64,000 bases of DNA from Peptococcaceae bacterium (GCA_017656185.1 JACDOK010000001.1:64205-128204), one strand, 5' to 3'. Shown: positions 17,551 through 53,220, counted from the stretch's first letter. Notes: a model not told the origin generated them from the letters alone. Numbers and translations: made by a program.

Positions 17551-18328
17551 CTTTCAGTCCCCTATTTATCGGGTCACTAGCTGAAACGGGACGATGGCCT
17601 GCCGGGGCCCCGCCGTTTGGGTACCTTTCAGTCCCCTATTTATCGGGTCATTAGCTGAAACTATGAATGTCCTAATTGTGGCTTTGACAGTCTTGACGTC
17701 TTTCAGTCCCCTATTTATCGGGTCATTAGCTGAAACCGCCCTCTCCACCGACGCAGGCCGCGAGATACTGGAGCCTTTCAGTCCCCTATTTATCGGGTCA
17801 TTAGCTGAAACCACGACCGTAAAAGGTTGAAAAGATGGTATAATGATACTTTCAGTCCCCTATTTATCGGGTCATTAGCTGAAACGTAAAACGGAAGTGC
17901 TTACTTTAGCCAGCGACATGGACTTTCAGTCCCCTATTTATCGGGTCATTAGCTGAAACTAAACCTCCACGCGTGTACAAGTTGAACTTCCTTTCTTTCA
18001 GTCCCCTATTTATCGGGTCATTAGCTGAAACCAAGGTTTGGAAATTGAAATTTGTGGTAGCTGGATTTCTTTCAGTCCCCTATTTATCGGGTCATTAGCT
18101 GAAACCTTGGTTTAGGCGTATTGTGGTTTATTTCAGTAGTGTCTTTCAGTCCCCTATTTATCGGGTCATTAGCTGAAACGGCGATACTCCAGATAAAGTA
18201 CCCGCCGAAATTAAACCTTTCAGTCCCCTATTTATCGGGTCATTAGCTGAAACGAAAAAGAAACAGAAAGAAACAGCTTCAACAATAGATACTTTCAGTC
18301 CCCTATTTATCGGGTCATTAGCTGAAAC
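17551..18328. CRISPR. CRISPR array: 11 repeats of 37 bp and 10 spacers of 35-38 bp
   Basis: Repeat CTTTCAGTCCCCTATTTATCGGGTCATTAGCTGAAAC starts at 17551, 17625, 17700, 17775, 17849, 17923, 17995, 18069, 18143, 18217 and 18292. Only the first copy varies (T>C at 17577). All spacers are unique. The transcribed strand is unresolved (see findings). Confidence 0.97.
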
Positions 18329-18342
18329 AGACCGCGATGGCC

Positions 18343-18370
18343 GAGAAAAAACCCTTGAACGATAAGGGTT
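18343..18370 (-). terminator. Intrinsic terminator ending the cas operon, 15 nt from the last CRISPR repeat
   Basis: Minus strand reads AACCCTT-ATCGTTC-AAGGGTT followed by TTTTCT. Confidence 0.55.
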
Positions 18371-18652
18371 GGCAGGGTTGGTATAACCAAATGAACTGCC
18401 CATTTTTTCGAAGACACGTTTTCTGCATCAAAACCCCCTTCTTTTGCGAAGCTATAAAAAACTTCTGCAAACCAACAACCATAAATGTTTTGCTGGCCCT
18501 ACCCGTTCAGAAGGACATAGGGTAATAGAGAGTTTGGATGGTCTTCCCAAATCCATTTGCGAAATTCTATGTAATTTTCCATATAATCTTGGCTATTAAG
18601 ATATTTTTGCTAGTGTTTCCTTAATTCCTGTCTGGTAGACCAACTTTTCAAC

Positions 18653-19573
18653 TTAGCTATGGCAGTGGGAATAGCAGTAACAATTTGCCGGGCACTGCTC
18701 CGGTGTCCCTGGGTCAATTTCTTCATATATCATACGCGCTTTATCATCCCGGGCCTCGATAAACCACTGGCGCAGCTCGTCGTCAATAACATGTAGGTCT
18801 TTTTTAATTATCAGCCTGTTGTCCTGAAACTTGGCGTATACGAGACAACCAATATTGACTGGAAACTCGTAGATCGCTTCCATTACCATCGCGTAACCGG
18901 TAGTGCATAACCGGTGAAAGTCTTTGGGTTCACCGAACTTTAGATCCATAATCATAGGCTCGCAGAACGTAAAAGCATCGGTACTAAGATTGCTGCTCAA
19001 ACCCAGAAAACTGCCGTCCAGACGCTGCTCAACGACAACAGGAACGGCTAAGTTCACCAGGGAGTCCTCACCAATATACGGCTGCTTGATTAAGATTTCC
19101 TGAATACGAGACACAATGCGCGAAGTTTCGAAGTCGGTTACAATCTGCACTTTTTCTTTTAGATCATTAACGTCATCCTCGGCTAGGTCCCGGGCATATG
19201 GCTCTAAAGATAGCGACTCCAACTCCTGTAAAGCTTGGCAGATCTTAGTATAATTATTTACGCCCTCAGTGTAAATAAGACGTTTGGCCGAAACCAGTAC
19301 ATGCACCATTGCGGCGTGCAGTATCTTACCCCGCACCATAGCCGGGCTCGGTTCAGGCCGCACCTTCTGCACGCGACGCAAGTAAAGGTCGCGATTAGTA
19401 GGACAGTAGCCATTGGCCACCTCGTAAATGGCCAGAACGGTATCGTAAACCGGTTCCAGCGGCGGCTGGTGCCAGTTCCACCCGCGCAGTTCCTCGGCGA
19501 CACCACGCTCCCGGGCTTTAGGCAAATACCCCCGTAACAACTGTTTTCTTTCTTCGTCAGTTAGAAAATACAT
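18653..19573 (-). CDS. csa1: Csa1-like (Cas4-related RecB-family) CRISPR-associated protein
   Basis: 306 aa, immediately downstream of cas4. C-terminal Cys cluster CPANCYCYSHC. Size and position fit Csa1; the family call is from memory. Confidence 0.55.
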   Translation of the reverse strand: MYFLTDEERKQLLRGYLPKARERGVAEELRGWNWHQPPLEPVYDTVLAIYEVANGYCPTNRDLYLRRVQKVRPEPSPAMVRGKILHAAMVHVLVSAKRLIYTEGVNNYTKICQALQELESLSLEPYARDLAEDDVNDLKEKVQIVTDFETSRIVSRIQEILIKQPYIGEDSLVNLAVPVVVEQRLDGSFLGLSSNLSTDAFTFCEPMIMDLKFGEPKDFHRLCTTGYAMVMEAIYEFPVNIGCLVYAKFQDNRLIIKKDLHVIDDELRQWFIEARDDKARMIYEEIDPGTPEQCPANCYCYSHCHS

Positions 19574-19575
19574 GG

Positions 19576-20145
19576 TTACACATCCCCACAGTAGAGTTTA
19601 AATTCGCACTCCTGGCAGCGACCGGGGCGTCTTCGCAGCATAGGGAAATGTTCACCGGTAACCAGCCGTCTAATCTGAGTAAGCAGCCGCTTTACGTATA
19701 AACGGGCATTGGGCGTAATATCGAGAGCGTATACCTTTTTTGTCATGATCATATAAAGATAACCGCAACGTACGGGCTTTTGATATAGGTCTTCCAGAAG
19801 CATTGCATAGGCTACCAACTGATACTTGTGGTTTAAAGCGGGTTTGCAGGAGGTATATTTGCATTCTACAGGAAAGCAACCCTGTAATGTAACAATATGC
19901 ATATCCAAGACGCCTTCTAATCCCAGACGCTCACTCACCAGGCGGGTACGAAACCGCCGCTCACCTTCCTGTAACTTGTACGACTTTAGGCGGCGCCTTT
20001 TTTCCAAGCGTTCAAACTCAATGTGTTCTTCCTTACCGTGGATCATTTTGCGTGTGATTTTCTTATCCACTGGTATGACGTAGGTAAAGTAGATGATGCG
20101 GGGACAGTAGAGAAACTGTTTAATATCGCTGACTTTGAGCATCAT
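19576..20145 (-). CDS. cas4: CRISPR-associated exonuclease Cas4
   Basis: N-terminal FLYCPRIIYF and C-terminal CQECEFKLYC (the four-Cys Fe-S ligands), with a RecB-type core. Confidence 0.85.
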   Translation of the reverse strand: MMLKVSDIKQFLYCPRIIYFTYVIPVDKKITRKMIHGKEEHIEFERLEKRRRLKSYKLQEGERRFRTRLVSERLGLEGVLDMHIVTLQGCFPVECKYTSCKPALNHKYQLVAYAMLLEDLYQKPVRCGYLYMIMTKKVYALDITPNARLYVKRLLTQIRRLVTGEHFPMLRRRPGRCQECEFKLYCGDV

Positions 20146-20486
20146 ACCACAAGGACCTCTCCCCTTTTAGGAACGTAGGCAGCATACGGAGCCGGTGCTT
20201 CCGCAGCTTCCTCCGTCTTAGCAGGTTTAATATTTATCTCTTTGAGCAGGCGAATATCCTTGTCACAGACCGGGCAGATCACAATATTTCCTTCTTTGGA
20301 GCCAAGGATCTTTCTTAACCGCTGGTAAAGTTCTTCTCGCCGGTTCTGCGTCAGATCTCCGAAAAAAGCTGAATACTGGATATGTGTTAAACCATAATCC
20401 TTACAGGCGTTAAAAACTTTATTACGGATCTTATCCTCGACAATATCGTAAAACACGAAGGTTTTCACATTACCATCCCCCCACAA
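20142..20486 (-). CDS. cas2: CRISPR-associated endoribonuclease Cas2
   Basis: VFYDIVEDKIRNKV...YGLTHIQYSAFFGDL is a Cas2 ferredoxin-fold pattern. The start is either ATG 20486 (overlapping cas1) or GTG 20468. Confidence 0.85.
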   Translation of the reverse strand: MWGDGNVKTFVFYDIVEDKIRNKVFNACKDYGLTHIQYSAFFGDLTQNRREELYQRLRKILGSKEGNIVICPVCDKDIRLLKEINIKPAKTEEAAEAPAPYAAYVPKRGEVLVV

Positions 20487-21477
20487 AGGGCTTGTACTTT
20501 GTCTCGCCCCTTAGGAAGGAGGCAATGCGCCGGGCCTGCATCTGGATAACAGCTTGAAGCTTGTACTTCTTACCATTGTAGCTTTCTTCCGCGTTCAGCC
20601 GTTCCATAACGCGTTTAGCTATCTCCCGCCGTGTTTCCTGGCTAAGCCCGTTGTCATCGACTTCAAGAGCAATTCCTTTGTTAGTCATCGCCACAACGAC
20701 GCGGTCTACAATAATGGGGCGGAATTCTTCCACAAGATCCAACACAAGAGAAGGTTTTCCCGGCCGGTCGCTGTGCAGGTAACCGGCAAAAGCATCAAGA
20801 CCGGCCAGGTTTATTGCTCCCCAAATCTGGTTATATAGGATGCCGTAACCATAGTTGAGTGTGGAATTGAACGGGTCTAAGGCACCGCGACGTTCACGCC
20901 CTTCGAAATCGATATGGTCCGCAACTAAAATCTTTAGCCCGTCCCAGTAATGCTGAGCAGCCCGTCCCTCGACAGCCAACAACTGCCCTCGAATTTCTTC
21001 GATGCGGGGGGCATCTAAGGATGATAATTGGCTGCGAACCCTGTCAATCTCGCCAACTAAACGGGAAATATCTTGATATGTTTCTGGATTTTTTGCCCGG
21101 CGATACTTGGCAAAATACTTCAAAATATTGGCCTGGTTCTTGATCTTACCTTCCACAAAAGCCTTGGCCAACTCAACCCCACGGTGGTCGGCGTAAGCCA
21201 GGATCTGTTCACGGCGGGTGATGACCGTACCAGTGAGATTGGGTGACGATAGCTTAGCGTATGGCTTGCCGGAAAAGGAAAGGAAGTTTATCTGGATGCC
21301 GTATTCTACACACTCCCGGATCACATCGGTGGATAATGATACGCCCTTACTGACAATAGTGATTTGTTCAATATCTCGGAAAGGAGCTTCACCAATGACC
21401 GCACCCTTTTGTCGTAATAATAACCGTTCACTCTTCTTCCCTAAGGAAATTCCAAAATCTGACACGACAATATGCAT
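20470..21477 (-). CDS. cas1: CRISPR-associated endonuclease Cas1
   Basis: ATG at 21477 follows GGGGAGGTG. The Cas1 catalytic region is HSDRPGKPSLVLDLVEEFRP. Confidence 0.9.
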   Translation of the reverse strand: MHIVVSDFGISLGKKSERLLLRQKGAVIGEAPFRDIEQITIVSKGVSLSTDVIRECVEYGIQINFLSFSGKPYAKLSSPNLTGTVITRREQILAYADHRGVELAKAFVEGKIKNQANILKYFAKYRRAKNPETYQDISRLVGEIDRVRSQLSSLDAPRIEEIRGQLLAVEGRAAQHYWDGLKILVADHIDFEGRERRGALDPFNSTLNYGYGILYNQIWGAINLAGLDAFAGYLHSDRPGKPSLVLDLVEEFRPIIVDRVVVAMTNKGIALEVDDNGLSQETRREIAKRVMERLNAEESYNGKKYKLQAVIQMQARRIASFLRGETKYKPFVGGW

Positions 21478-21542
21478 CGGAAATTGGCACCTCCCCGTGC
21501 AAGATATGTCGGTGGAGGTATAGTTTACCATGCACATTGTCG

Positions 21543-21606
21543 TTTGTTCAATAAAACGGCGATATTAGTGGGATTTCAGCAGGATAAGTGGGGATTCGCT
21601 TCTATT
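21543..21606 (-). repeat. Degenerate CRISPR-repeat-like element in the cas3'-cas1 intergenic region
   Basis: Minus strand reads GAATCCCCACTTATCCTGCTGAAAT. It shares colinear blocks TCCCC / TTATC / GCTGAAA with the array repeat, with about 9 nt deleted from the centre. TTGAACAAA follows at 21551-21543. Confidence 0.35.
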
Positions 21607-21673
21607 GTCGCCCACCATATAAGTATTCATATGGAGGCAAGTTTGCCAAGATACTTTGCCCGCACAAACGGTA

Positions 21674-23353
21674 TTACTCGTCCGCCGCCCAGAACCGTAC
21701 GATACAGTTCCGTCCGCTGCCGAGTCGCCCATATTCCTTATCACCGATCCGTAAGCAAATGTTGTCATCTTCTTCTAGTGGGCTGGTTTCCGGGCTTATT
21801 TCCAACACAGTCCAATACGTCCCGAAGCCTTTGAAGTCTATCTTTGCGAGTAGATAGGTGGTCCTATCCACTTTCTTCTGCCAAGCGCAGGACTTTACCT
21901 CGCCCATTACAGGTAGACGACGGGGGGCAAAGTAGTAGCGTTCTAAACTTGGTACACCTTCCACCTTACCGTTCCGCAGTCTCAGTTGCTTGCGGAACAG
22001 CGTGCGGTAGTTGATGTATTCGCCGCTCTCGTAGCGCGTGAAGGGCGTCAAGCCGCGAAAAGCGAACAGGCGGTCAACGCCTTTCGTCTCAAGGAGTTGG
22101 CATAGCGCCAAGTCGTCGCCTGTGACAAAGTCGGGAGCGTCCCATAACTTGTAATAACAATACGCCGCCAACCCATTCAATAACTCGCTCGGCTCGCGCA
22201 AGGGGAACTGCTGCCGCAGTAGTTCTAGAAACTCGCACCGTTCATACGTTGCCTTGAGCGTATCACGTTGACTGTAGAGTGTACTGCTGTAACATAGCAC
22301 AAATGCCGGTTTCCCTGACCGGGCTGCTCGCCCGAACCGCTGCAAGAAACTCTCGGCGTAGGTCTCCTCGATGACTAGATTCGCCGCATCGAAATCTACT
22401 CCCGCCTCAATCGCGGGCGAACCCATCAAGCAGTACGCCTTGGGGTTTCCCTCGAAACGGCGGAAGTTGGCAAGTCGCTGCCTTTCGGACATCTTGTCTT
22501 GTCCTACAAAGACCATCTCGCTGGCGCGGTGGGCGTCCAGGCATCGCGCTATCTGCCACGCTTTAAACGCGGAGTTGAAGATGCCGACCACGTTGGTAGT
22601 GATGCCCAACTCGCGCAAGTCGGTGGCGATGTTCTCTGCGTTCTCTTTGTTTGGCTTTAGATGCAGCGTGACGTCGCCCGTGAAAGAAACACCTTCAATT
22701 CTATCGTCATCGTTCATGCCCAGTTCGGTTTGCAACAACGTCCACAAATCTTCAGGAAACGTGGCGGACAAAAAGTAAAAGCGACTGTCGCGCGTACCCG
22801 TTCCCGACTGCCAGTATTTCACCGTGCGGATGAAGTAGCGTAACGACGATTGCATAAGCGCGTTATAGCAGTGCACCTCGTCGAACACGAAGTTATATTT
22901 GCTGAGAATAGTCATCGCTGCTGCGCGCCCCGCTCTGCTGCCGTCCAGCAACGCAATCAATTTGTCTGGTGTGATGAGCACGTAAGGTCTGGTCACTGCT
23001 TGGGCGATGTCGCTCTCTGACACACCGCCCCAGAGTCGATAAAAATCATTCTCTGTCAGCCCGAAAAGAGACCCATAGCGCACCAGTTGATTCGTCTGGT
23101 CCAACACTAACGCGCGAAATGGGTACACGAAGACAGCGGGCGTCAAATTCTCAAACAATGGCGCCGCGATGGCCAACGTCTTTCCGGAAGCCGTTGGCGC
23201 CACTAATGCCAGATGGCGCCCTGCCTTGACCTTCGTATACGTCTCCGATTGGAGCGGCGCGAACAGCGTTGGATACCTTCGTCGAAATGCCGCGCACGGC
23301 GAAGGATTTGGAACGGACGCAGGCCTCTCGCCACGTATCGTAATATTATCCAT
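21674..23353 (-). CDS. cas3: Cas3' helicase (DExH) lacking an HD nuclease domain
   Basis: Motif I LVAPTASGKT and motif II FDEVHCYN. At 559 aa there is no room for, and no H/HD motif of, an N-terminal HD domain. Confidence 0.8.
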   Translation of the reverse strand: MDNITIRGERPASVPNPSPCAAFRRRYPTLFAPLQSETYTKVKAGRHLALVAPTASGKTLAIAAPLFENLTPAVFVYPFRALVLDQTNQLVRYGSLFGLTENDFYRLWGGVSESDIAQAVTRPYVLITPDKLIALLDGSRAGRAAAMTILSKYNFVFDEVHCYNALMQSSLRYFIRTVKYWQSGTGTRDSRFYFLSATFPEDLWTLLQTELGMNDDDRIEGVSFTGDVTLHLKPNKENAENIATDLRELGITTNVVGIFNSAFKAWQIARCLDAHRASEMVFVGQDKMSERQRLANFRRFEGNPKAYCLMGSPAIEAGVDFDAANLVIEETYAESFLQRFGRAARSGKPAFVLCYSSTLYSQRDTLKATYERCEFLELLRQQFPLREPSELLNGLAAYCYYKLWDAPDFVTGDDLALCQLLETKGVDRLFAFRGLTPFTRYESGEYINYRTLFRKQLRLRNGKVEGVPSLERYYFAPRRLPVMGEVKSCAWQKKVDRTTYLLAKIDFKGFGTYWTVLEISPETSPLEEDDNICLRIGDKEYGRLGSGRNCIVRFWAADE

Positions 23354-23365
23354 TCGTTTCCCACC

Positions 23366-23971
23366 TCAACCTACCAGAGGCACGACATAATCGCCCACCT
23401 TCAATCGCCTCATACGCGGTAGGATCGGCACAGCAACGATAAGGTAACGACCTGTAGCTGCAATGGGGCGATAGGCAGGCAGTTTAACCAAGTCGGACAC
23501 AGTCACTTGCACAGGTAACACAACGGGCGCGCTGTTAATGGTGTCGGGTTCCACGTCGTCCTCGATGTGGCAAGCGGTGATAACGGCAGCCGCCCGCTTC
23601 TTGCCAATGAGAAACACCTGCCCCACCTGTAACGACGGCACTTCCCCCCACGCGACAAAGCGAAACCGCGAACCGGGCAAGAGGAGTTCCTGTCTGCCAA
23701 ATCGCAATAGCCCTGCCTTCGGATCATCTCCCGCCTTGTAAATCACTTCGGTTGTTCGCACCTCTATGGCCTCGGCGGGCGTGCAATCGAACGGAAACGT
23801 CAATGGTTGATATTCCTCGCGTTTGTCCCGTTGCAGAACTTCCGCATAGGTAATCGCGCTGGCAACCGCCTCTTTTGTAAAGAACTTATGCGTGCGTGCG
23901 CGACTCGCGTAGAACTCACGTACGTTCATCGTGGATGACTCCAGCATGAACTCTACATAAGCGGCTTGCAC
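23366..23971 (-). CDS. cas5: Putative Cas5-family (Csc1-like) RAMP protein
   Basis: GTG at 23971 lies 6 nt after AGGAGG, which overlaps the upstream stop. About 201 aa. Called from its position between the cas7-like gene and cas3'. No strong motif seen by eye. Confidence 0.4.
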   Translation of the reverse strand: MQAAYVEFMLESSTMNVREFYASRARTHKFFTKEAVASAITYAEVLQRDKREEYQPLTFPFDCTPAEAIEVRTTEVIYKAGDDPKAGLLRFGRQELLLPGSRFRFVAWGEVPSLQVGQVFLIGKKRAAAVITACHIEDDVEPDTINSAPVVLPVQVTVSDLVKLPAYRPIAATGRYLIVAVPILPRMRRLKVGDYVVPLVG

Positions 23972-23981
23972 GACGCACCTC

Positions 23982-24818
23982 CTATTCTTCCTGCACTGTT
24001 TCCTTCTGGGCATCAACACTTTGGAATTTCGTTGACAACTGGTTGATGGCTTCAAATAGATCATCGCCCGTCAAAACATCCTCCGCCGTCACACCGACAG
24101 CTGCCTGGGCGAACTCTTCGATCTGCTTAGCCAGGGATTTCTCACTCGAAAGCAACCTGTAAACAGACAGATGTGCAAAACCGTTTGCCATCAGCAGCCA
24201 ATCGGTGGTCGCGTTCCCACGCAGTTTCGAGTAGTTACCGTACCCCAGTCCATCCGCCAACTGGTTACCATGCAGAAATAGCATGAGATCGCGCTGACTA
24301 GGCTTAATGAGCCGCACAATGAAGGGAAATTCCGTGCCAGGCGGAACAATGACCTCCTGAAACGGCGTCGGGTTGGCGTTTGGTTCATCGGGAAGTCGTA
24401 CGCGAAACTTTTCGTCGTACTCATAGGGCTGAACAGAGATGAGGTCTTGCACCTTTAGCCGCGAAAACAGCGACTTGTTATTGTCTGTGCTCAAGCCTCC
24501 TAGCAACCCACATACTTCACACGCAACGCAAGGCTTGTCTACAGTGCAGTTATTCACGTTGAGTTTTGCCAACAGGACGCGACGCAACACGCCATTGTAT
24601 TTGCGCGCCAGCCACCAGTACCGTTCCTTGCCCGCGAACTCCACCTTCGCCGTCTCGCGTAACGTGCCAATGCCTTCGCTCGACACAAACAGTGCTTCGC
24701 TTTCCAGTCGCTTGATACCCACCAACGTCAAGACTCCCTCACGCATGAGGTTGATGCGCGTGGCGTCGAAGGCCTCTGGTACGCCCCACTTTACAGGCAA
24801 CCGGTCAATGAAATTCAT
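23982..24818 (-). CDS. cas7: Putative Cas7-family backbone protein (Csc2-like / type III-like RAMP)
   Basis: 278 aa. ATGA start/stop overlap with the upstream gene. CVACEVCGLLGG resembles the CxxCxxFG-type loop of Csm3/Cmr4-like Cas7 proteins. Confidence 0.5.
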   Translation of the reverse strand: MNFIDRLPVKWGVPEAFDATRINLMREGVLTLVGIKRLESEALFVSSEGIGTLRETAKVEFAGKERYWWLARKYNGVLRRVLLAKLNVNNCTVDKPCVACEVCGLLGGLSTDNNKSLFSRLKVQDLISVQPYEYDEKFRVRLPDEPNANPTPFQEVIVPPGTEFPFIVRLIKPSQRDLMLFLHGNQLADGLGYGNYSKLRGNATTDWLLMANGFAHLSVYRLLSSEKSLAKQIEEFAQAAVGVTAEDVLTGDDLFEAINQLSTKFQSVDAQKETVQEE

Positions 24819-27415
24819 TCTGACTCGCCTCCTTTGTAGTGGTTATAGTAGAACAGCAAATAGAGGTCCATATCGGCAATGGTGCGCGAGAAGTCCCCCA
24901 AAGGACAGCCTTCCCTCTCGCAAGTGGAGATAATCTCTTCCACAAGCTCAAGCACCTGCTTAACCAACTCTTGGTTCGCTCCGCGTTCATGTTCACGACG
25001 ATAGGCATTAAGCAAGCGAGTACCCCATGATCGCGCTGAATCGGCATCGCGCACCATTTTGATGCTTTGGATCCACTTAACCAGCTCGACGCCTGTATAC
25101 TGCTCCTGCTGCGTCTTCCAAAAACCCTTGGCACGAGGACACCATCCGTTCTCAACCAACAACCTTACAATCTTTAACCCCAACTGAAACTTCCAATCGC
25201 CCTGGGTAGCGATTTGCTCCGCCACGTCAATCACCTCCTTCACTTTGTCCGCTCCTGGTGAGAAGCTGTCCCGATGTTTCTTGCGCCATATCAAAGTGAC
25301 TGCGCGACGCGGGTTGTTCAGCAACTCAAGGAACAATCCTTGATTGAGCACGTAACTTTTCTTCGTCTTGCGTCTATTAGCGTCAGCTATACGGTAAGCG
25401 AGCGACGCGCGGCGCATTTCGTCCAACGTAACTTCTTCGCCGAACACTGAAAATTGATAATCAGTGGGCGTGACGTAATGAAGAGAGCCTCCCGTCAGGC
25501 GATAGAAGTCATACATCGTCGCTTTGATGAGTTCACGTTTAACGGCGCCACTTATGCCTTCTTCGCCTACCAATCGTTCGACAGGTATGCGCACCCCCAC
25601 GATGCTGCTAATGCGGTTCAGCGTCGGTAACGCAAAGCCTTTCAGTTGCGATAATCGCTTTCTGCTCCGCCCATAGACAGACAGCATATCAGCACCGATG
25701 TCCTCACCAATAAGAGCTTGTAGACCTGTCAGTTCCGCTGTGACAGAAGTCATCTCACTGTCTTGCTCTGATATCTCTGTCGCCTCGTGGCTTTCCTCTT
25801 CGATTTCCTCTACCGTTGCCGCGTGTGCAACGACATCAATCAACTTTTGCAGTCGCTCTTTAGCGAGCGGGCTATTGATGAGCAAATATTCACGCTGTTT
25901 GTTGACGCTCTGTCCTCTTGGTTTCGTAACCCTGGCGATAGGTAGGTCCATATAACCTGCTGTGAAACACCATTGGCAAACACGAATCATAGAGTGAGTT
26001 TTACGGTGAGTTTGGAACACACTGTCCGTCTTTGGGCTGCCCGTGATAAGACCCTGCCCTTGTATCTGCTGCGGGAAACAACGACAGATAGGACAAAGAG
26101 ATTTATTACGTAGGCTACGTCGTCCCGTGACGTGCGAACCGTTCAGCAAAGCAAACTCAGCAACCTGTAAGTTGTAAACACCACTTTGAACGTCCTCTTC
26201 CATACGTCGCAACTCCAAAACGACGTTTGTCAGCGAACGGTAACCATTCGATGAATAATCGAATAACTTGAGCAGTTCTTGCAAATCTTTCTGCGTTTTC
26301 CTGTCGAGTTCCTTTGGCGCTTTCAGGTACTCTGCCAATTTCTCCCCACGCTGAATACCTGCTGGCACGACATGGGTGGGTAACTTCAGGGACCTTCCTT
26401 GAGACGCAACCTTCTCACGCACCTTTTGCCAGAGAGACTTAATACCGTTCTCTAAACCATCCCTAAAGATTTCGGCCGCTTGTTCAATCGTATCCGACAA
26501 ATCATATCGTTCCAGTATCTCTCGAATACTTCTGCGACCGTAAAGTGCAGTGGCTAACTTGATAGCGATGGCTTCGTTGACAAGGAGATACTTCACGCTG
26601 GAAACCTCTAGTTCAGGCGGCAGTCCTGACAATATCGTGTCGAAGATTTTCTCATTAAACAATGCCTCATAGAGCATCTTAGGATTGACCGTCAGCCCTG
26701 TCAGCGCTTCCCGCACTTGCGATTCGTCGCCAACCACCCACAAAGTTCCGCGCTTTTGAAGAAGGATATCTAGGCCCCGTTCTATCAGTTCGGGTGCGAG
26801 TTGCTGAAATATCATGTTTGCCAACAGCACGTCCTCAACGGAGTGCGCGGGCAGATCGATGCGATGTATACACCCGCTTAACCCTTCTGTGAAACCCAAG
26901 GAGTGGGTCAATTCCATGTTTATTTGTGTATAAGGGTTTGATGCCAGCAGCAATTGGATGTTGCCGACGAATCCCCTTTCTAGGCAAGAGGCAATGACAT
27001 CCGCAATAGATACCAGAATCGCCGCCTTATACTCGACTAACAGCGATGGGCAGCAAGAATGATGTTCCTCTGCGATCTTCAGGAGGATACGCCTATCTGC
27101 ATCTAGGTTGATGCCATTGTCTTGCAGCAACATACGAAATCGTTGATCATCAAGCAAATCATCGAGATACTTTGACGAGTAGGAGCTATGGACCCACTGG
27201 TCACCTCGGACGTCCTGTTCAATCTTACCGACATCGTGGGTTAGCGCTCCGACACGCACGATATCGGCTTGATCGCCGACCATTTCCATATTCTTTGTAA
27301 TTAGATATTCAGCAACCTGGAACACATCATTGGAGTGCTCGAAGATGCTTAATCGCGGTTGGGTTTTTCCTGTGTAAGTGATGTACTTGTCGTAGGTGGT
27401 AAGTTCATGGGTCAT
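24815..27415 (-). CDS. CRISPR large subunit with an N-terminal Cas3''-type HD nuclease domain (Cas10d-like)
   Basis: 866 aa. HD motifs FEHS...GALTHDVGK...AEEHHSCC. Central CPICRC...CQWC zinc-finger-like pairs. No GGDD cyclase motif. Helical C-terminal region. Confidence 0.6.
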   Translation of the reverse strand: MTHELTTYDKYITYTGKTQPRLSIFEHSNDVFQVAEYLITKNMEMVGDQADIVRVGALTHDVGKIEQDVRGDQWVHSSYSSKYLDDLLDDQRFRMLLQDNGINLDADRRILLKIAEEHHSCCPSLLVEYKAAILVSIADVIASCLERGFVGNIQLLLASNPYTQINMELTHSLGFTEGLSGCIHRIDLPAHSVEDVLLANMIFQQLAPELIERGLDILLQKRGTLWVVGDESQVREALTGLTVNPKMLYEALFNEKIFDTILSGLPPELEVSSVKYLLVNEAIAIKLATALYGRRSIREILERYDLSDTIEQAAEIFRDGLENGIKSLWQKVREKVASQGRSLKLPTHVVPAGIQRGEKLAEYLKAPKELDRKTQKDLQELLKLFDYSSNGYRSLTNVVLELRRMEEDVQSGVYNLQVAEFALLNGSHVTGRRSLRNKSLCPICRCFPQQIQGQGLITGSPKTDSVFQTHRKTHSMIRVCQWCFTAGYMDLPIARVTKPRGQSVNKQREYLLINSPLAKERLQKLIDVVAHAATVEEIEEESHEATEISEQDSEMTSVTAELTGLQALIGEDIGADMLSVYGRSRKRLSQLKGFALPTLNRISSIVGVRIPVERLVGEEGISGAVKRELIKATMYDFYRLTGGSLHYVTPTDYQFSVFGEEVTLDEMRRASLAYRIADANRRKTKKSYVLNQGLFLELLNNPRRAVTLIWRKKHRDSFSPGADKVKEVIDVAEQIATQGDWKFQLGLKIVRLLVENGWCPRAKGFWKTQQEQYTGVELVKWIQSIKMVRDADSARSWGTRLLNAYRREHERGANQELVKQVLELVEEIISTCEREGCPLGDFSRTIADMDLYLLFYYNHYKGGESE

Positions 27416-27433
27416 TATCTCTATCCTCTCCCA

Positions 27434-28420
27434 TTATTTAGTAAACCCTATCTCATATCTCCCCATCCCGAACACGGCGCCCTTGCCGACGTGGATGAGC
27501 TCGCCTAAAGCCAATAAAGGTAAGAATTCATCCAAGTTATTGCCACGGTAGGTGACTTCACCCATTAAGCCGCCTAGGTTGACGCGGCCGTCCTGGCGGT
27601 GTGAGTAGCGCGCCCAGTCGACCCACCGGGTATTTTCCTTAACTGTTGTAACCTGTTCTGCCCGCTCGATAAGTCCTTTGTAATCAACCCGGAGTTCACG
27701 TTCGTGATGGAAGTAGCTCAAGGACGAAATGCGGCGCAGCAGCCCGCGGATTAAAACGTGAAACGGTAAGGACCGCACGAAGTGATTGTCGTGTTTGAGC
27801 CGTGTCACGGTCAGCAGGCGAATACTGATCTCATTACGACCTAAGTATTGCGCTTGAGCCCGCTCCCAAACTTTTTCGCCCGCTATCACAATATCAATGT
27901 TTTTCACGATACGGTCCCGGGCGTTATAGATTTCCGTCGCGGTATCTTCTACATCCAGAGCAGAAATACGGGCCAGTTGATAAGGTTTGCGCCCCTTGCC
28001 GATCCCTACCCGGCCCAGTTCTTCGAAGCAAATAATAAAATAAGGTAGATATCTAACGGCCTTGCCGAACAAGGCCAGGCCAAAGGCCAATTCCTCGCCG
28101 GGTGCATACTCGGTCTTCGTCTCTAAGGGTGGTTCTAAAACAAAAGGGCGCGAGATATTTTCCAAATTGCGCAGCACCTGGCTCCCTTCCGGCGGAGAAG
28201 TTTCGAAGATGTATGCATATGGACAGGTCTCCTTTAGGACACATTCCTTACATTCTCCCTGCCGTTGAGCGCAAGCAACCCGCCGGAAGACACGCCCGAA
28301 CCCGCCGCGCAGGGTAGAGCCCTTATAGGGTGGTAAGACGAGGCCCTGCTCTCCGGTACGGATCACGACCTCATACTTGGCAATCCGAAAAGCGGTAAGT
28401 TCTTGAGCAAGTGTGTTCAT
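27434..28420 (-). CDS. cas6: Cas6-family crRNA endoribonuclease (long form with a Cys-rich insert)
   Basis: C-terminal glycine-rich loop HVGKGAVFGMGRYE. N-terminal YKGSTLRGGFG. First gene of the interference operon. Confidence 0.75.
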   Translation of the reverse strand: MNTLAQELTAFRIAKYEVVIRTGEQGLVLPPYKGSTLRGGFGRVFRRVACAQRQGECKECVLKETCPYAYIFETSPPEGSQVLRNLENISRPFVLEPPLETKTEYAPGEELAFGLALFGKAVRYLPYFIICFEELGRVGIGKGRKPYQLARISALDVEDTATEIYNARDRIVKNIDIVIAGEKVWERAQAQYLGRNEISIRLLTVTRLKHDNHFVRSLPFHVLIRGLLRRISSLSYFHHERELRVDYKGLIERAEQVTTVKENTRWVDWARYSHRQDGRVNLGGLMGEVTYRGNNLDEFLPLLALGELIHVGKGAVFGMGRYEIGFTK

Positions 28421-33230: not shown

Positions 33231-33869
33231 TTAAACCACGGGAAACACGATCTCATAATCCACCTTGTGTTCCAAGAACTCGCTGAGCTGCCCGACCGTA
33301 TAAATCTGCCTTGTTTCCAGAATTGTGAACAGCCTTAATAAGAGCTGGGCCGTGAGCCGAGCATCACCCAGCGCCGAATGGCGCCCCACGGCATCGATAC
33401 CGTGAATATGCAGGAGAGCATCCAGGGAATGCGAACCAAGAGTGGGATAAAGCCTCCTGGCAATGGCCCATGTGTCAAAAACGGGATTTTTTAGTCTCAG
33501 CCCGTATAGTTGTTCCAACTTGTAATTAACAAAATCAAGATCAAAGCCGATATAATGCCCCGCCAAACAGTCCCCACCAAGAAAGGAGAGAAAATCCCGC
33601 AGGGCAGGAACAACGCCGGATTTCCCACTGACGCATTCTTCACAAATCCCCGTCAGCTTGGTGATGTGCGGCGGAATGGGGCGCCCCGGATTTACCAGGC
33701 GATCGAAAACCCGGTCGGGACAAAGTTTTCTATTTTCAATCACTACGGCCCCGATGGCGATGATTTCATCCCCGTCCCGGGGATGAAAGCCCGTGGTCTC
33801 GAGGTCCGCAACCACCAAGCGCAGATTACGTAACGGGGTATCCGGGCTTGGAAACCATCTTACATCCAT
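33231..33869 (-). CDS. DEDDh 3'-5' exonuclease (DnaQ/epsilon-like)
   Basis: ExoI VVADLETTG, ExoII GHYIGFDLDF, ExoIII HSALGDARL. Confidence 0.75.
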   Translation of the reverse strand: MDVRWFPSPDTPLRNLRLVVADLETTGFHPRDGDEIIAIGAVVIENRKLCPDRVFDRLVNPGRPIPPHITKLTGICEECVSGKSGVVPALRDFLSFLGGDCLAGHYIGFDLDFVNYKLEQLYGLRLKNPVFDTWAIARRLYPTLGSHSLDALLHIHGIDAVGRHSALGDARLTAQLLLRLFTILETRQIYTVGQLSEFLEHKVDYEIVFPVV

Positions 33870-33888: not shown

Positions 33889-35817
33889 TCATGAAGGTAA
33901 GTAAAGCCGCCAAAACTCGCCGAACTCCCCGGCAGTGCGTTTTTGCAGGCGCGGGATTACCGAAAAGGCATCCTTCAAAACAGCCTGTTCCCTCTTACTC
34001 AGTTCGAAGGGATTGATATAATCATCAGGCGTTTCATTCCTGTCCAGCTTGGCCAGGTTCGACCGGATACGAAACATCATTAAGGTTTCATAAGCGGCTT
34101 CAATAAACTCTATGTCATCACGGGGCATAGCGCCCATACCCGCCAGCAACCGCAACCTTCCCAGCGTCGAGGTCTCGGTCAGGCCGTACTTCAGCGCAAA
34201 AATCCTAACACAGTTGACGATCGGGAGGCAGGCCGCAGTTTTAAGGTTGATCTGGTTCTTGTGTTTACCCGACCGCTCGGTAACAAACCCCCCGAACAAA
34301 CTCAACGGCGGTCTCAGGTGAACATCATCGCCGGCCATAAAGTGAGGCGCCCCGCCGCGGGCTTTCAGTGTTTGGAAAACAGCGCGCCATAATTTTTCCG
34401 CCAGTGTTTCCGTGCCGTAAACAAGACGGAAATCCAGTAAAATAGTTAACATCCTAACGTCCTCCGGCTCCCCACGGAAAATCCAGCGCTGTACTCTTTC
34501 TTTCCACTGGGCCAGGGACTGGCACCATTCGGGGTAGGCAGACATAACGCCCCCCGGGCACTCGGCAAACCCGCACCGGACAAGTGCATCGGTGATTTTT
34601 ATGCCCAACCTGTGAAAGTAGTCCGCCGCCTCAACCGTTTCGGCATCTTCCGGATCGTCATAAATAATGGCGTTGTCCTGGTCGGTGCGCAGGGTCTGCT
34701 CCCGCCGCCCGGCACTCCCCATGGTGACCCAACAGTAGTCAACGGGCGGCGGCCCGTACCGCTCGCGCATTTCCTGTTCACAAAGCGCGATAACGCGACG
34801 CGTGAGGGCGTCGTTTAACTCGGACATGATATCCATGATTTCCCGGGCGCCGGCCTTCTCGGCAACCAGGGCGTTAAGGAAATTATCCACCTCGCGGCCG
34901 ACTTCGGATAACCCCGCAATGGTCTGCTGGGACTCAATGCGGTGCGCCACCCAAAAGGTACCCGTACCACGAGCCTTCACAAGATCAACCACGCTGATGA
35001 TGCCGGCCAGCCGCCCGTCCTCCATTACGGCCAGGTGTTTGACACCGTACTTGATCATCTTGAGGAGTGCTTCGTGCAGATAAACCGAAGCCGCTATGGT
35101 GACCAGCTCGGGCTTCATTACCGTTTCCACGCGGCATTCTTCCACCTTTTTTACCGGACGGGCAATCAACTCGGCTACCAGATCACGTTCCGTAACAATC
35201 CCTACCGGTCGACCGTCCCCGTCAACCACAATTACGGCGCTGATGTTTCGGTCTGCCATGACGCGGGCGACCCTGCTGACAGGATCGCCCAGCCGGCACG
35301 TAATCACGGGAGAAGACATCAATTCTTTGACGCGGCGGCGGAACAATGCCTCCGCCCCGCGGCCGTGTACGGCATGCGCCTGCTCCGCCACGATTTCCTC
35401 ATAGAGTGTCCGCATGCGGTCAAGAAGTACCCGGCTGAAAAAGTCGGCCACGTCCGGGTAATGGTGCATCAGGCGCTCAAAGATTTTCCGGGGTACTACC
35501 AGGCAAGTCAGGTCCTCTTTAGCCCGTACCGAACCGGGATATTTCTGATCGGTAAGCACTACGGTTTCACCAAAGAAGTCATTTTTGCGCCGGTAACCCA
35601 CCACAGTTTCCATACCCCTGCCACTGCGTACCGTAACTTCCGCCGTCCCCTCTATCACGATGTAGAGGAGGTTTTGGCTGGGATCCCCCTGGCGGAACAC
35701 GTAGACGCCCGCCGGGAACTCTTTAAAGTACATTTCGGTCCCGACTTCCCGGAGTACCGCTTCGTCCAAAGAGCGGAACGGGACAATCGATTTCAGAAGC
35801 CTTATTACTTTTTCCAT
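33889..35817 (-). CDS. cNMP-binding / tandem CBS / DUF294 nucleotidyltransferase-domain protein
   Basis: cNMP-binding segment FRQGDPSQNLLYIVIEGTAEV, two CBS domains, and a nucleotidyltransferase motif GSAGRREQTLRTDQDNAIIYDD. Confidence 0.75.
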   Translation of the reverse strand: MEKVIRLLKSIVPFRSLDEAVLREVGTEMYFKEFPAGVYVFRQGDPSQNLLYIVIEGTAEVTVRSGRGMETVVGYRRKNDFFGETVVLTDQKYPGSVRAKEDLTCLVVPRKIFERLMHHYPDVADFFSRVLLDRMRTLYEEIVAEQAHAVHGRGAEALFRRRVKELMSSPVITCRLGDPVSRVARVMADRNISAVIVVDGDGRPVGIVTERDLVAELIARPVKKVEECRVETVMKPELVTIAASVYLHEALLKMIKYGVKHLAVMEDGRLAGIISVVDLVKARGTGTFWVAHRIESQQTIAGLSEVGREVDNFLNALVAEKAGAREIMDIMSELNDALTRRVIALCEQEMRERYGPPPVDYCWVTMGSAGRREQTLRTDQDNAIIYDDPEDAETVEAADYFHRLGIKITDALVRCGFAECPGGVMSAYPEWCQSLAQWKERVQRWIFRGEPEDVRMLTILLDFRLVYGTETLAEKLWRAVFQTLKARGGAPHFMAGDDVHLRPPLSLFGGFVTERSGKHKNQINLKTAACLPIVNCVRIFALKYGLTETSTLGRLRLLAGMGAMPRDDIEFIEAAYETLMMFRIRSNLAKLDRNETPDDYINPFELSKREQAVLKDAFSVIPRLQKRTAGEFGEFWRLYLPS

Positions 35818-38203: not shown

Positions 38204-40189
38204 TTATGATTCTTTGCCCTCATATTGAGCCTTTAGCTTGGCAATAACCGCAGGGTCTGCCAGGGTCGTCGTGTCACCCAGGGCGCGGCCCTCAGCCACG
38301 TCCCTTAACAAGCGGCGCATGATCTTACCGCTTCTCGTTTTCGGCAATTCCGCCGTAAAGAAGACATCTTCAGGCCTGGCAATGGCCCCGATCTTTTTCA
38401 CTACGTGCGCCTTAAGCGCCTTCTGTAGCTCCTTCCTGTCCATATCCCCATTCCGGATTTCCTGCCAGACGTGCTCCTTCAGGGTCACAAACGCCGAGAT
38501 AGCCTGCCCTTTTATTTCGTGGCTCTTGCCGATCACAGCGGCCTCGGCCACAGCCTGGTGGTCGACCAGGGCACTTTCTACTTCCATAGTGCTCAGCCGG
38601 TGTCCCGAAACGTTGATCACATCGTCCACGCGGCCCAAAATCCAGTGATAGTTATCGTAATCCCGCCGGACGCCGTCACCGGCGAAATACCACCAGCGAT
38701 CCCCGAAATGACTCCAGTACTGGTCAATAAAGCGCTGGTCATCACCGTAGATCGTCCGCAGCATAGCCGGCCACGGTTCTTTTATGACCAGGTAACCGCC
38801 TTTACCCAATTCCACCGAATTGCCCTGCTTATCGACAACGTCGATGTTAATGCCGGGAAACGGCACAGTAGCGGAACCTGGCTTGAGCGGGGTAATACCA
38901 GGCAGGGGGCTGATCATGATCTGCCCGGTTTCGGTCTGCCACCAGGTATCAACAATCGGACAACGGCCCCCACCGATATTTTTGTAATACCATATCCAGG
39001 CCTCGGGGTTAATGGGTTCACCCACCGTCCCCAAGAGGCGGAGGCTGGAAAGATCATGCTGTTCGGGCCACTTACGGCCCCACTTCATAAAGGCGCGAAT
39101 GGCCGTCGGTGCGGTGTAAAACACCGTTACTTTGTGGCGTTCAATGATATCCCAGAAACGGTCCTGCTGCGGCCAGTCGGGGGCACCTTCAAACATAAGT
39201 GTGGTAGCGCCGTTGGCCAGCGGCCCGTAAATGACATAGCTGTGCCCGGTAATCCACCCGATATCCGCCGTGCACCAGTATATGTCATCCTCTTTGTGGT
39301 CAAAAATAATACGGTGCGTGGTCGAAGTTCCCACCAGGTATCCCCCCGTAGTGTGCACCACGCCTTTGGGTTTCCCGGTAGTACCGCTGGTATAAAGAAT
39401 AAACAACATATCCTCACTGTCGGTTTCCTCACACGGACACTCGGCCGCCGCCCTTTCCATAAGCTCGTGATACCAGTAGTCCCGACCTTCAATCATCGGT
39501 ACTTCCTGGCCCGTACGCCGCACAACGACAACGCTTTCGATACTGGGACATTCCGCGACCGCATCGTCGGCATTGTGCTTCAGCGGCACAATCTTGCCTC
39601 TCCGCCAACCACCGTCGGCCGTAATTAATAATTTAGCGGCAGCATCGTTAATGCGATCGCGCAAAGATTCGGGGCTGAAGCCCCCGAAAACAATACTGTG
39701 CGGAGCACCAAGGCGGGCACATGCCAGCATTGCAATCGCGAGCTCGGGTATCATCGGCATATAAATGGCAACGCGGTCTCCCCGAGATACGCCAAGGCCC
39801 TTAAGCACATTGGCAAACCGCATCACTTCGCGCTGCAGCTCTTCGTAAGTTAGGGTTCGAATGTCCCCGGGTTCCCCTTCAAAGATAATGGCCGGCTTGG
39901 TCCGCCGCGAGGTCAAAACATGGCGATCCACACAGTTGTAACAGGCATTAATTTTTCCGTTAACGAACCATTTAGCGAAAGGCGGGTTATCCCAATCCAA
40001 CACCCGGTCCCATTTTTGAAACCAATCCAAATTCTCCGCCTGTTTGGCCCAAAAACCTTGCGTATCGGCCCGTGCCTCGTCATAAATAGCGCGATCATTT
40101 ACATTGGCCCGTGCTACAAATTCTTTATCAGGATAAAAGATGCGGTTTTCCTCAAGCAAGGTATCTAAGGTTTCCCTATTTACCGCCAC
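38204..40189 (-). CDS. acs: Acetyl-CoA synthetase (AMP-forming)
   Basis: 661 aa. AMP-binding motif [11 protein letters not shown]. Acs-typical N-terminus and C-terminal [11 protein letters not shown]. Confidence 0.95.
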
Positions 40190-41610: not shown

Positions 41611-42912
41611 TTGATATGGGACACAACTGAAACCCTGCCGCGTGAAGAAATCCGGCGCCTGCAGCTGGAACGCCTGAAAAAGGTCGTACGGCGTGTTTAT
41701 AACAAGGTGCCTTTTTACCGTAAACAGTTTGAAAAGTACAGCATCAAACCGTCCGACATTAAAACCCTGGAAGATATCGCCAAGCTCCCGTTTACCACCA
41801 AAGACGACCTGCGTGAAAATTACCCTTACGGCCTTTTTGCGGTACCTTTGGACAAGCTGGTACGCATACATGCATCATCAGGGACGACCGGCCTGCCTAC
41901 CGTCGTCGGTTACACTAAAAAGGATCTCCATACCTGGTCCGACCTGGTGGCCCGTATCGTGGTACAGGCCGGGGTTACCTCACGGGACGTGGTTCAGATT
42001 TGCTTTACCTATGGCCTTTTTACCGGTGGTTTCGGGCTGCACTACGGGCTGGAAAGGGTGGGAGCAACCGTTGTTCCTGCTTCCAGCGGCAATACTAAAA
42101 GACAGATCCAGCTAATGAAAGACTTTCATACCTCAGTCCTTGTCAGTACGCCCTCTTATGCTTTATACATTGCCGAAGTAGCCGAGGAAATGGGAGTTAA
42201 CCCGCGCGAACTCGGCCTGCGCGTGGGACTTTTCGGCTCGGAGCCGTGGTCGGAAGCAATGCGGGAGGAACTGCAAAAACGGTGGGGGCTTTTAGCCACC
42301 GACAACTACGGTATGAGCGAGCTAATCGGGCCCGGCGTGGCCGGTGAATGTGAACGTCAAAACGGCCTGCACATCTCGGAAGATCATTTTCTTGCCGAAA
42401 TTATCAACCCCAAAACCGGTGAACCCCTGCCTCCCGGTTCCAAAGGTGAACTGGTTATTACGACCCTAACCAAAGAAGGTCTGCCCCTGCTAAGGTATCG
42501 TACCCGTGATTTGACCAGTATTGACGAAAGTCCTTGTCTTTGCGGTCGCACGACTGCGCGTCTTGCCCGCATATCCGGTCGCACCGATGACATGTTAATT
42601 ATTCGGGGAGTTAACATCTTCCCGTCGCAGGTCGAGGAAGTCCTGTCTGAAATTAAGGGAGTCGGCCCCGAGTACCTTATCGTTGTGGATCGCAAGGACT
42701 ATCTTGACCAGCTCGAGATACAGGTCGAACTGGCATCTGATTATTTTACCGGTAAATACCGCGATCTCGAAGACCTGGAGGCAACCGTAAAATCGAAACT
42801 TCAAAGCGTACTGAACGTTACCCCGCGGGTAAAACTGGTCGAGTACAAATCCTTGGAACGAACGGCGGGCAAAGCCAAAAGAGTTATCGATCGCCGTAAA
42901 GAACGTAAATAA
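41611..42912 (+). CDS. paaK: Phenylacetate-CoA ligase family protein (paralog 1)
   Basis: TTG start. [13 protein letters not shown]-binding motif. The N-terminal ...[14 protein letters not shown]... and C-terminal [10 protein letters not shown] are typical of PaaK/F390-synthetase-like enzymes. Confidence 0.85.
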
Positions 42913-42938
42913 TAAGTCAAGATTTAAGGAGGATCAAT

Positions 42939-46928: not shown

Positions 46929-46967
46929 ACAGGCGTACCTCCTTTTACCTTAATCTTCCGCACCGGT

Positions 46968-47747: not shown

Positions 47748-47793
47748 TTATTGCCACCTCCGCTTTAAAAAGTCCGTAGCCATCTCCGGCCGG

Positions 47794-50700: not shown

Positions 50701-50832
50701 AAGTTTGAACGGTCCCAGCTTAATGGGAGACTCTGATGCTTCAGCCGGTATGCCCGCAGCATCTAATAATGAAACCCCGGCTGCGCCCAGTCCGAGAGCT
50801 TTGAGAAATTCCCGCCTACTAAGTTTCCTCAT
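47794..50832 (-). CDS. fdhA: Selenocysteine-containing formate dehydrogenase catalytic (molybdopterin) subunit, Tat-exported
   Basis: The two ORF-track pieces (50224..50832 and 47794..50211) are in one frame, joined by an in-frame TGA at 50226-50224, reading HHARL-U-HSTTVAGLANTFGRGAMTNHW (the conserved Sec site). Twin-arginine signal SRREFLK. N-terminal CxxCxxC Fe-S motif. Confidence 0.9.
50183..50216 (-). promoter_or_regulatory. SECIS-like hairpin 7 nt downstream of the UGA
   Basis: Lower stem CTACCG (50216-50211) pairs with CGGTAG (50188-50183). Upper stem GGCC/GGCC with apical loop GGTCT. Confidence 0.6.
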
Positions 50833-52365: not shown

Positions 52366-52403
52366 ACAGGTGTACCTCCTTTTACCTTAATCTTCCGTAC
52401 GGT

Positions 52404-53183: not shown

Positions 53184-53220
53184 TTAATTGCCACCTCCGC
53201 TTTAAAAAGTCCGTAGCAGG

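Follow-up and report, generated by a model that had tools for sequence, protein, structure and literature searches.

The window analyzed here, a stretch of 64,000 nucleotides (nt) from a Peptococcaceae metagenome-assembled genome (MAG; GCA_017656185.1, JACDOK010000001.1:64205-128204), carries on its minus strand, at positions 17551-28420, a complete CRISPR-Cas locus of nine cas genes and an array. This locus likely encodes a full type I system, probably active, that is built on the I-D plan and whose effector proteins belong to a rare and so far unclassified family. It has the features of type I, namely a Cas3-family helicase, a Cascade-type module of Cas5, Cas7 and a large subunit (LS), and an adjacent CRISPR array, and a type I system with I-D architecture is an already known kind. 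No model tested covered the effector family, which is at least a new and deeply divergent variant and might rank as a subtype. LS and Cas7 showed their kinship to I-D in the predicted structures, but only faintly in sequence.

The genes are transcribed in the order cas6, LS, cas7, cas5, helicase, cas1, cas2, cas4 and csa1 (18653-28420, minus strand), and all nine open reading frames (ORFs) were intact and tightly coupled. The initial annotation had described cas6, an LS of 866 amino acids (aa), a 278-aa Cas7-like protein, a Cas5-like protein of about 201 aa and a 559-aa helicase, and all of them were found on the minus strand; with these sizes (866, 278, 201 and 559 aa) the effector is compact. 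The close coupling and ATGA overlap that it reported were confirmed by direct reading, which placed the overlap between the LS and cas7 genes (...gaATGAat...) and gave gaps of 10-18 nt between the remaining effector genes. The gap of 196 bp that it gave before cas1 is correct if Cas1 begins at M21, where the Cas1 models align, but is 136 nt if the first ATG is used. The cas1, cas2, cas4 and Csa1-like genes named behind this gap were each matched by family models. The Cas3''-type HD motifs noticed at the N-terminus of LS were also present, and H27 (FEHS), H60-D61 (LTHDVGK), H118-H119 (EEHH) and D139 were invariant in 12 homologues, as were the zinc-finger cysteines C441, C444, C480 and C483 (25967-26095). 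The helicase, as annotated, showed DEAD, Helicase_C and Cas3-like_C_2 domains in Pfam and no HD domain. The I-D hallmark architecture recognized at the outset, with HD on LS and an HD-less Cas3', was retained, and the folds nearest to LS and Cas7 were those of Cas10d and Csc2.

The structure of LS, for which the initial annotation had called, was modelled by AlphaFold2 from an alignment of 12 homologues (predicted local distance difference test score, pLDDT, 77; predicted template-modelling score, pTM, 0.74), and the model was compared with the PDB using Foldseek. Three matches were significant, all of them Cas10d and from two organisms: the Synechocystis I-D Cascade (7sba_I, E 2.7e-6), the crystal structure of S. 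islandicus Cas10d (6yes_B, 9.5e-5) and 7sbb_I (9.8e-4). The alignments were full-length, with a probability of 1.0 and 10-12% identity. The other fold matches were not significant, among them an HD domain (PgpH, E 0.38) and type III Cas10 (E 0.45-0.8). Since the isolated HD domain reached an E value of 0.38 only, the match to Cas10d is not due to HD alone. Structures of Cas8a, b, c, e and f are present in the PDB, and no Cas8 was among the top 50 matches of LS. The Cas7 model (pLDDT 85) was closest to T. pendens Csc2 (4txd, 1.3e-11) and Synechocystis Cas7d (7sba_A, 2.5e-9, TM-score about 0.6), followed by Csm3 and type VII Cas7 (about 1e-8) and by the Cas7 proteins of I-E and I-B (about 1e-7 to 1e-6).

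The window proteins were also scanned against Pfam, NCBIfam/TIGRFAM and PADLOC profiles, with the I-D locus of Synechocystis pSYSA as the control and seven canonical I-D loci, 25% identical to each other, for comparison. The control Cas10d, Cas7d and Cas5d scored 1160, 249 and 292 bits on TIGR03174, TIGR03157 and TIGR03159, and matched 8, 5 and 7 PADLOC I-D models, respectively (range 249-1609 bits; Cas10d 1160-1609). In contrast, LS matched neither TIGR03174 nor any PADLOC Cas10d model, and no PADLOC Cas8 profile, that of Cas8b included; its HD domain matched generic models weakly (Pfam HD, 2.2e-4; TIGR01596 cas3_HD, 2.9e-4). No Pfam or NCBIfam model matched Cas7, which did not reach TIGR03157 or the PADLOC Cas7d models, and none matched Cas5, TIGR03159 included. 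Because the I-D models score the control strongly, the window proteins lie outside those models. When LS and the LS and Cas7 profiles were compared with PDB chain sequences, no Cas10d or Csc2 was found, only an HD-region match (E 0.0033) and matches at chance level. The LS and Cas7 family profiles also gave no significant alignment to the single Synechocystis proteins by hhalign, and that of Cas5 was moderate. The helicase stayed below the cut-offs of all subtype models (Cas3g, 70 bits against 400; cas3_cyano, 54 against 69.1).

Faint sequence links to I-D were nevertheless found across the families of Cas7 and Cas5. A weak match to a Cas7d model was obtained in 15 of the 33 Cas7 family members (best of any member, 4e-6), and the Cas7 profile gave no significant alignment to the seven canonical Cas7d. 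The window Cas5 matched two PADLOC Cas5d profiles weakly (0.003 and 0.012, with an E of 0.002 also obtained for the window protein); 26 of its 29 family members matched the Cas5d profile PDLC01497 (best 3.2e-6), all PADLOC matches were to Cas5d, and no PADLOC Cas5b model was matched. Against the seven canonical Cas5d, hhalign gave Cas5 a probability of 64% (E 6.7e-5). The 201-aa form of Cas5, starting from GTG at 23971, was supported by an alignment of 28 homologues, whereas the gene product in the NCBI record has 145 aa. Such loci are invisible to subtype typing. NCBI labels the LS, Cas7 and Cas5 of this MAG "hypothetical protein", and no Pfam or NCBIfam family model covers them; as a result, systems of this sort are under-counted.

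In comparison with subtype I-D, the locus shares the HD domain at the N-terminus of LS, the separate HD-less Cas3', the lack of a separate cas11, the best fold matches of LS and Cas7 (Cas10d and Csc2), the weak Cas5d similarity, a 37-nt repeat ending in ACTGAAA(G/C), and an association with WYL domains. A separate WYL regulator is found in nearly all canonical I-D loci (PMC10212523), and relatives of the window locus have a WYL-HD fusion. However, LS and Cas7 have no significant sequence similarity to the I-D families, the gene order is cas6-LS-cas7-cas5-cas3' and not cas3'-cas10d-cas7d-cas5d-cas6, and the HD is a separate protein in some relatives. The window proteins are also shorter than those of I-D (LS 866 against 975-1158 aa, Cas7 278 against 321-347 aa, helicase 559 against 714 aa), and Cas1 is only 28% identical to the Synechocystis Cas1d.

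The effector family is very rare. A word-seeded search of 5.8 billion clusters gave 12 other full-length LS homologue clusters, and an exhaustive hidden Markov model (HMM) search of 1.84 billion representatives with the LS-core profile gave 33 proteins. Eight more distant or partial LS-core matches were scanned; six were HD-LS fusions of 879-962 aa, and none matched a Cas10d model, except for one marginal match in the HD region. The Cas7 family comprised about 120 clusters (90% identity), and 61 were counted for the Cas5 family. When 185,579 species-representative genomes were scanned for Cas7 by a pattern-seeded search, five loci were found, all in MAGs (Eubacteriales, Anaerolineae, Methanosarcinales, Latescibacterota and one unassigned), and no match to Cas7 or LS was obtained by tblastn in 72,556 plasmids. 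No description of the family was found in the literature that could be searched, which is incomplete and includes the 2025 classification update (PMC12669027) and an I-D review.

We compared the window with 12 related loci. The LS-cas7-cas5 core was syntenic in all of them and the helicase was present in 11, being missing from L010. The helicase follows cas5 in most of them but precedes the HD gene in L011 and L012; cas6 is adjacent in some. Identities to the relatives were 36-57% for LS, 55-74% for Cas7, 44-63% for Cas5 and 40-69% for the helicase, the last over the aligned stretch and with 51-69% in one comparison. Three states of the HD domain were seen. It is fused to LS in the window, L001-L003 and L008, in the arrangement (cas6)-[HD-LS]-cas7-cas5-helicase; it is fused to WYL in L004-L006, in the arrangement [WYL-HD]-nucleotidyltransferase-LS-cas7-cas5-helicase-cas6-cas1-cas2-cas4; and it stands alone in L011 and L012, in the arrangement helicase-HD-nucleotidyltransferase-LS-cas7-cas5. 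Residues 5-307 of the window LS shared 44% identity with an 894-aa HTH-WYL-WCX-HD protein of L005 (its residues 336-643) and 38% with the 530-aa HD protein that stands alone in L012. Residues 368-858 shared 45% identity with the 679-aa LS of L005, a separate protein without HD (its residues 160-665). Judged by these alignments, the window LS is a fusion of an HD module and an LS core.

The N-terminus of the WYL-HD protein, mainly its HTH-WYL-WCX part, matched the PADLOC WYL-Cas3c model PDLC01766 (2.5e-146). The WYL-HD protein of the split relatives, in which an HD module homologous to the N-terminus of the window LS is joined to HTH-WYL-WCX, is close in this respect to known WYL-Cas3 fusions and to the WYL regulators of I-D loci (Sll7009); however, the window LS has no WYL domain, and the WYL-HD protein of the relatives has no helicase. 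In the relatives with detached HD, a small nucleotidyltransferase gene always lay between the HD gene and the LS gene (L004:10001-13388; L005:4534-7915; a decayed copy in L006; L011; L012:1461-3791). Its product of 235-245 aa matched DUF2204, DUF6036 and AbiEii-like models; the window, which has the fused form, carries no such gene. The WYL-HD gene of L006 was broken into fragments.

The surroundings of the fused relatives also varied. At L001:15964-22691 the effector module is followed by a 440-aa Cas1 with an N-terminal extension of about 108 aa, cas2, and a type III-A module of Cas10/Csm1, Csm2, repeat-associated mysterious proteins (RAMPs) and Csm6; on the upstream side, a type ISP restriction enzyme and an integrase are encoded. 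In L003 (1-9478) and L008 the module has no cas6 or adaptation genes of its own and stands directly behind another type I system (genes of 492, 355, 249 and 794 aa, the last being Cas3), which has an array of a different repeat; a mini-array of three repeats precedes the LS gene at L008:7025-7195. The arrangement in L003 and L008 suggests sharing of CRISPR RNA (crRNA) between neighboring systems.

The adaptation module was then compared with those of other systems. The best subtype-labelled model for Cas1 was PADLOC Cas1b (2e-88), and the I-D model gave 190 bits, under its cut-off of 385 bits. The window Cas1 was 42-49% identical to the Cas1 of family members, and 50%, 45% and 44% identical to those found beside other effectors in Rubrobacter, Deinococcus and Herpetosiphon, respectively; in Deinococcus, PADLOC labelled LS, Cas7 and Cas5 as Cas8a, Cas7 and Cas5a. 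The similar divergence of Cas1 (42-49%) and LS (44-45%) was once read as co-inheritance, a reading that was dropped because Cas1 was 44-50% identical beside unrelated effectors. The order cas1-cas2-cas4-csa1 was seen twice more: in the Methanosarcinales MAG (L010), where it follows an effector of the window's own family, and on plasmid 1 of Rubrobacter radiotolerans, where it adjoins a different system that bears Csc2; csa1 was 43% identical to that of L010 and 42% identical to the cas4a of the Rubrobacter plasmid. The relatives L001 and L005 had no csa1. The pairing of Cas4 and Csa1 paralogues in one operon with cas1 and cas2 resembles subtype I-A, of which Csa1 is typical (PMC5704561). However, no Cas8a, Csa5, Cas7a (Csa2) or Cas5a was matched in PADLOC, and the host is bacterial.

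The Rubrobacter plasmid (NZ_CP007515; L019, L020 and L022) carries a type I locus with separate HD and LS, comprising genes for WYL, an HD-less helicase, a 313-aa HD protein, a 688-aa LS, a 149-aa protein, Cas7, Cas5, CARF and Cas6. Like the window locus it has the cas1-cas2-cas4-csa1 module and an HD-less helicase, and its HD forms a small protein of its own, as it does in the split relatives of the window. Its Cas7 is detectably related to that of the window (hhalign probability 87%, E 3.7e-6) and matches the same PADLOC profile, PDLC01388. In contrast, its LS and Cas5 have no detectable similarity to those of the window, a 149-aa gene occupies the expected place of cas11, a CARF gene is present, and the adaptation genes lie upstream. 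The labels of this system conflict, since PGAP names its Cas7 as the I-D protein Csc2, while PADLOC and Makarova profiles name its LS Cas8b, its Cas5 Cas5b and its helicase Cas3d. The case demonstrates that there is already a twilight zone between I-B and I-D that is poorly resolved. A CopG-VapC pair lies between the modules of the plasmid.

An array, absent from the initial annotation, was found directly downstream of csa1. Its repeat, read on the cas strand, is GTTTCAGCTAATGACCCGATAAATAGGGGACTGAAAG, and the repeats were identical except for one substitution in the leader-distal repeat. As the degenerate repeat lies at the opposite end of the array, the csa1 side is presumably leader-proximal. 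The repeat length of 37 nt is shared with the Synechocystis I-D repeat (...GGGACTGAAAC) and with the relative L005. L005 also has the same 3' end, ACTGAAAG, and that of Synechocystis, ACTGAAAC, differs in the last base alone. By its sequence the array looks active, its repeats being identical but for a degenerate one at the end and its 10 spacers all unique.

Several results weigh against an active system akin to I-D. The global TM-score between LS and Cas10d was 0.33, for a model built from a shallow alignment of 12 sequences; HMMs missed a sequence link of LS to Cas10d; and the LS family profile reached a probability of only 0.2% against the seven canonical Cas10d by hhalign. The best sequence match of Cas7 was the I-B-labelled "Cas7b" model PDLC01388, which was matched by 33 of 33 family members (best 1.1e-15) and partially by the window protein (1.8e-12, positions 31-161 of 264). 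No protospacer was found when all 10 spacers, concatenated, were searched by blastn against 50,697 phage genomes or when two degenerate spacer patterns were searched against IMG/VR, and hence no protospacer-adjacent motif was obtained. The locus could instead be read as a variant of I-B whose Cas8b-like LS acquired a Cas3''-type HD by fusion, so that the I-D layout arose by convergence and not by descent. The Cas7 matches to PDLC01388 speak for this. The order cas6-LS-cas7-cas5-cas3 is the one drawn for I-B, as noted in the initial annotation, and it is shared by the closest relatives (L001), although it differs among other members of the family; the homology of the HD to stand-alone and WYL-fused proteins, with the WYL-Cas3c match, makes it look like a mobile Cas3''-like unit; and the Rubrobacter system, related in its Cas7 and adaptation module, carries the Cas8b and Cas5b labels. 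However, neither a Cas8b nor a Cas5b model was matched by the window proteins, the helicase lacks the HD domain, the fold search with LS gave Cas10d and no Cas8 in the top 50, Csc2 stood about five orders of magnitude above I-B Cas7 in the fold search with Cas7, and Cas5 matched Cas5d only, which makes an I-B variant quite unlikely. The same Cas5 matches, together with the I-D architecture and folds and the I-D-like repeat, would fit an ordinary I-D locus whose low model scores reflect fast evolution in a poorly sampled Firmicutes lineage, and four Cas10d lineages are known, one of them in "other bacteria" (PMC10212523). A plain I-D variant had been one of the two initial proposals, and strong scores exclusively to I-D families, with the same csa1-containing gene order common in relatives, had been named as its mark. 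The profile searches gave no such scores: LS, Cas7 and Cas5 reached no curated I-D model, and at least eight PADLOC Cas10d models, five Cas7d models and three TIGRFAM equivalogs were left unreached, on which the control scored 249-1609 bits. Moreover, profile-profile comparison was not significant for LS and Cas7 even against seven loci with a mutual identity of 25%, and there were only 33 LS-core relatives in the 1.84 billion representatives, with the eight scanned reaching no Cas10d model beyond the marginal HD match. An ordinary I-D locus is therefore improbable.

The other initial proposal was a modular chimera. In one form of it, an I-A-type adaptation module with cas4 and csa1 was recently recombined onto a foreign effector module in the window genome. 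The association of Csa1 with I-A, the gap of 136-196 nt between helicase and cas1, the lack of csa1 in L001 and L005, and a Cas1 as near to that of unrelated systems (Rubrobacter, Deinococcus) as to that of its own family speak for such an event. However, the same order stands behind the same effector family in L010 with a csa1 of 43% identity, the module also accompanies the Csc2-bearing Rubrobacter system, the sequence composition is unbroken through the cas locus, and adaptation modules of I-A, I-B and I-D exchange freely as a general phenomenon (PMC5704561). Because the csa1 module recurs in L010 and Rubrobacter and such exchange is published (PMC5704561), it is best explained as ordinary module exchange and not as a singular event; a modular chimera thus holds in a weak sense only, and a recent one in this genome is unlikely. 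That the locus is decayed, inactive or used outside immunity would agree with the short array and the missing protospacers. However, the nine intact and tightly coupled ORFs, the invariant catalytic and zinc-binding residues, the identical repeats with unique spacers, and the presence of an adaptation module make this highly improbable. A type I system of I-D architecture with an unclassified effector family thus accounts best for the locus.

We found no cas11 gene in the locus, and the end of the LS gene was examined for an internal start. A Shine-Dalgarno (SD)-like motif, AAGGAGGT, lies at 25240-25233 and is followed by GTG (V731) at 25225-25223, which would give a helical product of 136 aa up to the LS stop. 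This motif or a near variant was found 6-7 nt upstream of a start-capable codon in 10 of 10 loci examined (ATG in five loci, GTG in the window, TTG in two and CTG in two). Eight of these loci have a complete LS frame, and in each of them the codon lay 136-161 codons ahead of the LS stop; the two others have it at the matching position. The motif is itself encoded by the conserved K/E-E-V codons. An internal Cas11 start is used by I-D (Cas11d), I-B and I-C (PMC10212523), and by analogy our data suggest that a Cas11-like subunit may be translated from within the LS gene. An internal start at M667 was set aside, because its SD motif was weak and the conserved V731 site was the better candidate.

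By analogy, the locus most likely encodes a DNA-targeting Cascade-type system that works as I-D does. The array (17551-18328) would be transcribed from the leader on the minus strand, and Cas6 would cut each 37-nt repeat to leave an 8-nt 5' handle, ACUGAAAG. Cas5 would cap this handle, about six or seven copies of the Csc2-like Cas7 would line the spacer of about 37 nt, and the Cas10d-like LS would close the complex, which the internally translated Cas11-like subunit may join. After formation of an R-loop on double-stranded DNA, the HD-less Cas3' would be recruited and feed the displaced strand to the HD domain of LS. Cas1 and Cas2, with Cas4 and Csa1, would acquire and trim new spacers.

Subtype I-D is regarded as an evolutionary bridge between type III and type I (PMC12669027 supplement; PMC10212523), and rare class 1 variants are expected in the "long tail" of the 2025 classification (PMC12669027). 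With the family described here, a Cas10d-like, HD-bearing LS is seen in a second lineage, which is very divergent; and since the HD is detached or fused to WYL in close relatives, a single family allows comparison of how the nuclease domain has moved. Tentatively, and with somewhat less than an even chance of being right, the family could be a type I lineage of subtype rank, sister to I-D, that preserves three states of the effector nuclease. If so, it would be a living series for the proposed departure of the HD nuclease from the LS as type I evolved from a type III or I-D-like ancestor, and the WYL-HD form would hint at ligand-regulated DNA cleavage.

Table 1. Position of the CRISPR-Cas features in the window, with the profile matches and sequence marks of each
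Feature	Position	Strand	Description
CRISPR array	17551-18328	minus	11 repeats of 37 nt, 10 unique spacers of 35-38 nt
Putative leader	18329-18652	minus	324 nt between csa1 and first repeat
csa1 (Cas4a paralogue)	18653-19573	minus	306 aa; Pfam Csa1 2.4e-81, TIGR01896 3.2e-66
cas4	19576-20145	minus	189 aa; TIGR00372 6e-30
cas2	20142-20486	minus	114 aa from TTG; TIGR01573 6.2e-13, Pfam Cas2 2.2e-19
cas1	20470-21477	minus	335 aa from M21, ORF to 21537; TIGR00287 1e-83
cas3' helicase, HD-less	21674-23353	minus	559 aa; DEAD 2.7e-20, Helicase_C, Cas3-like_C_2
cas5-like (Csc1-like)	23366-23971	minus	201 aa from GTG; ORF reaches 24064
cas7-like (Csc2-like)	23982-24818	minus	278 aa; conserved C91/C97/C100/C103 cluster
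Large subunit with N-terminal HD nuclease (Cas10d-like)	24815-27415	minus	866 aa; assigned by AlphaFold2 and Foldseek
Candidate Cas11-like internal frame	24815-25240	minus	SD-like AAGGAGGT and GTG
LS core, residues 368-858	24842-26314	minus	contains CPxC...CxxC zinc-finger cysteines
LS HD module, residues 5-307	26495-27403	minus	catalytic H27, H60-D61, H118-H119, D139
cas6	27434-28420	minus	328 aa; Pfam CRISPR_Cas6 1.2e-19, PADLOC Cas6 1.7e-106

The locus is flanked by ordinary chromosomal genes, namely those of a PHP phosphoesterase, a TrkA-C protein and an Na/H exchanger. A protein with cNMP-binding, CBS and DUF294 nucleotidyltransferase domains is encoded 5 kb from the cas locus (33889-35817, minus strand) and adjoins an RNase T-like exonuclease (33231-33869). 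Two tandem paralogous AMP-binding ligases of 433 and 434 aa with identical Pfam profiles (41611-44243, plus strand) are encoded beside a gene resembling acetyl-CoA synthetase (38204-40189). A molybdopterin oxidoreductase (47794-50832, minus strand) is split into ORFs of 202 and 805 aa in the same frame, and the in-frame TGA between them (HARL-TGA-HS) is probably a selenocysteine codon. A pair of an NrfD-like membrane subunit and a 4Fe-4S subunit was present twice (45726-47750 and 51163-53186), on either side of the molybdopterin subunit; the two copies lie 5.4 kb apart and are 89-97% identical.

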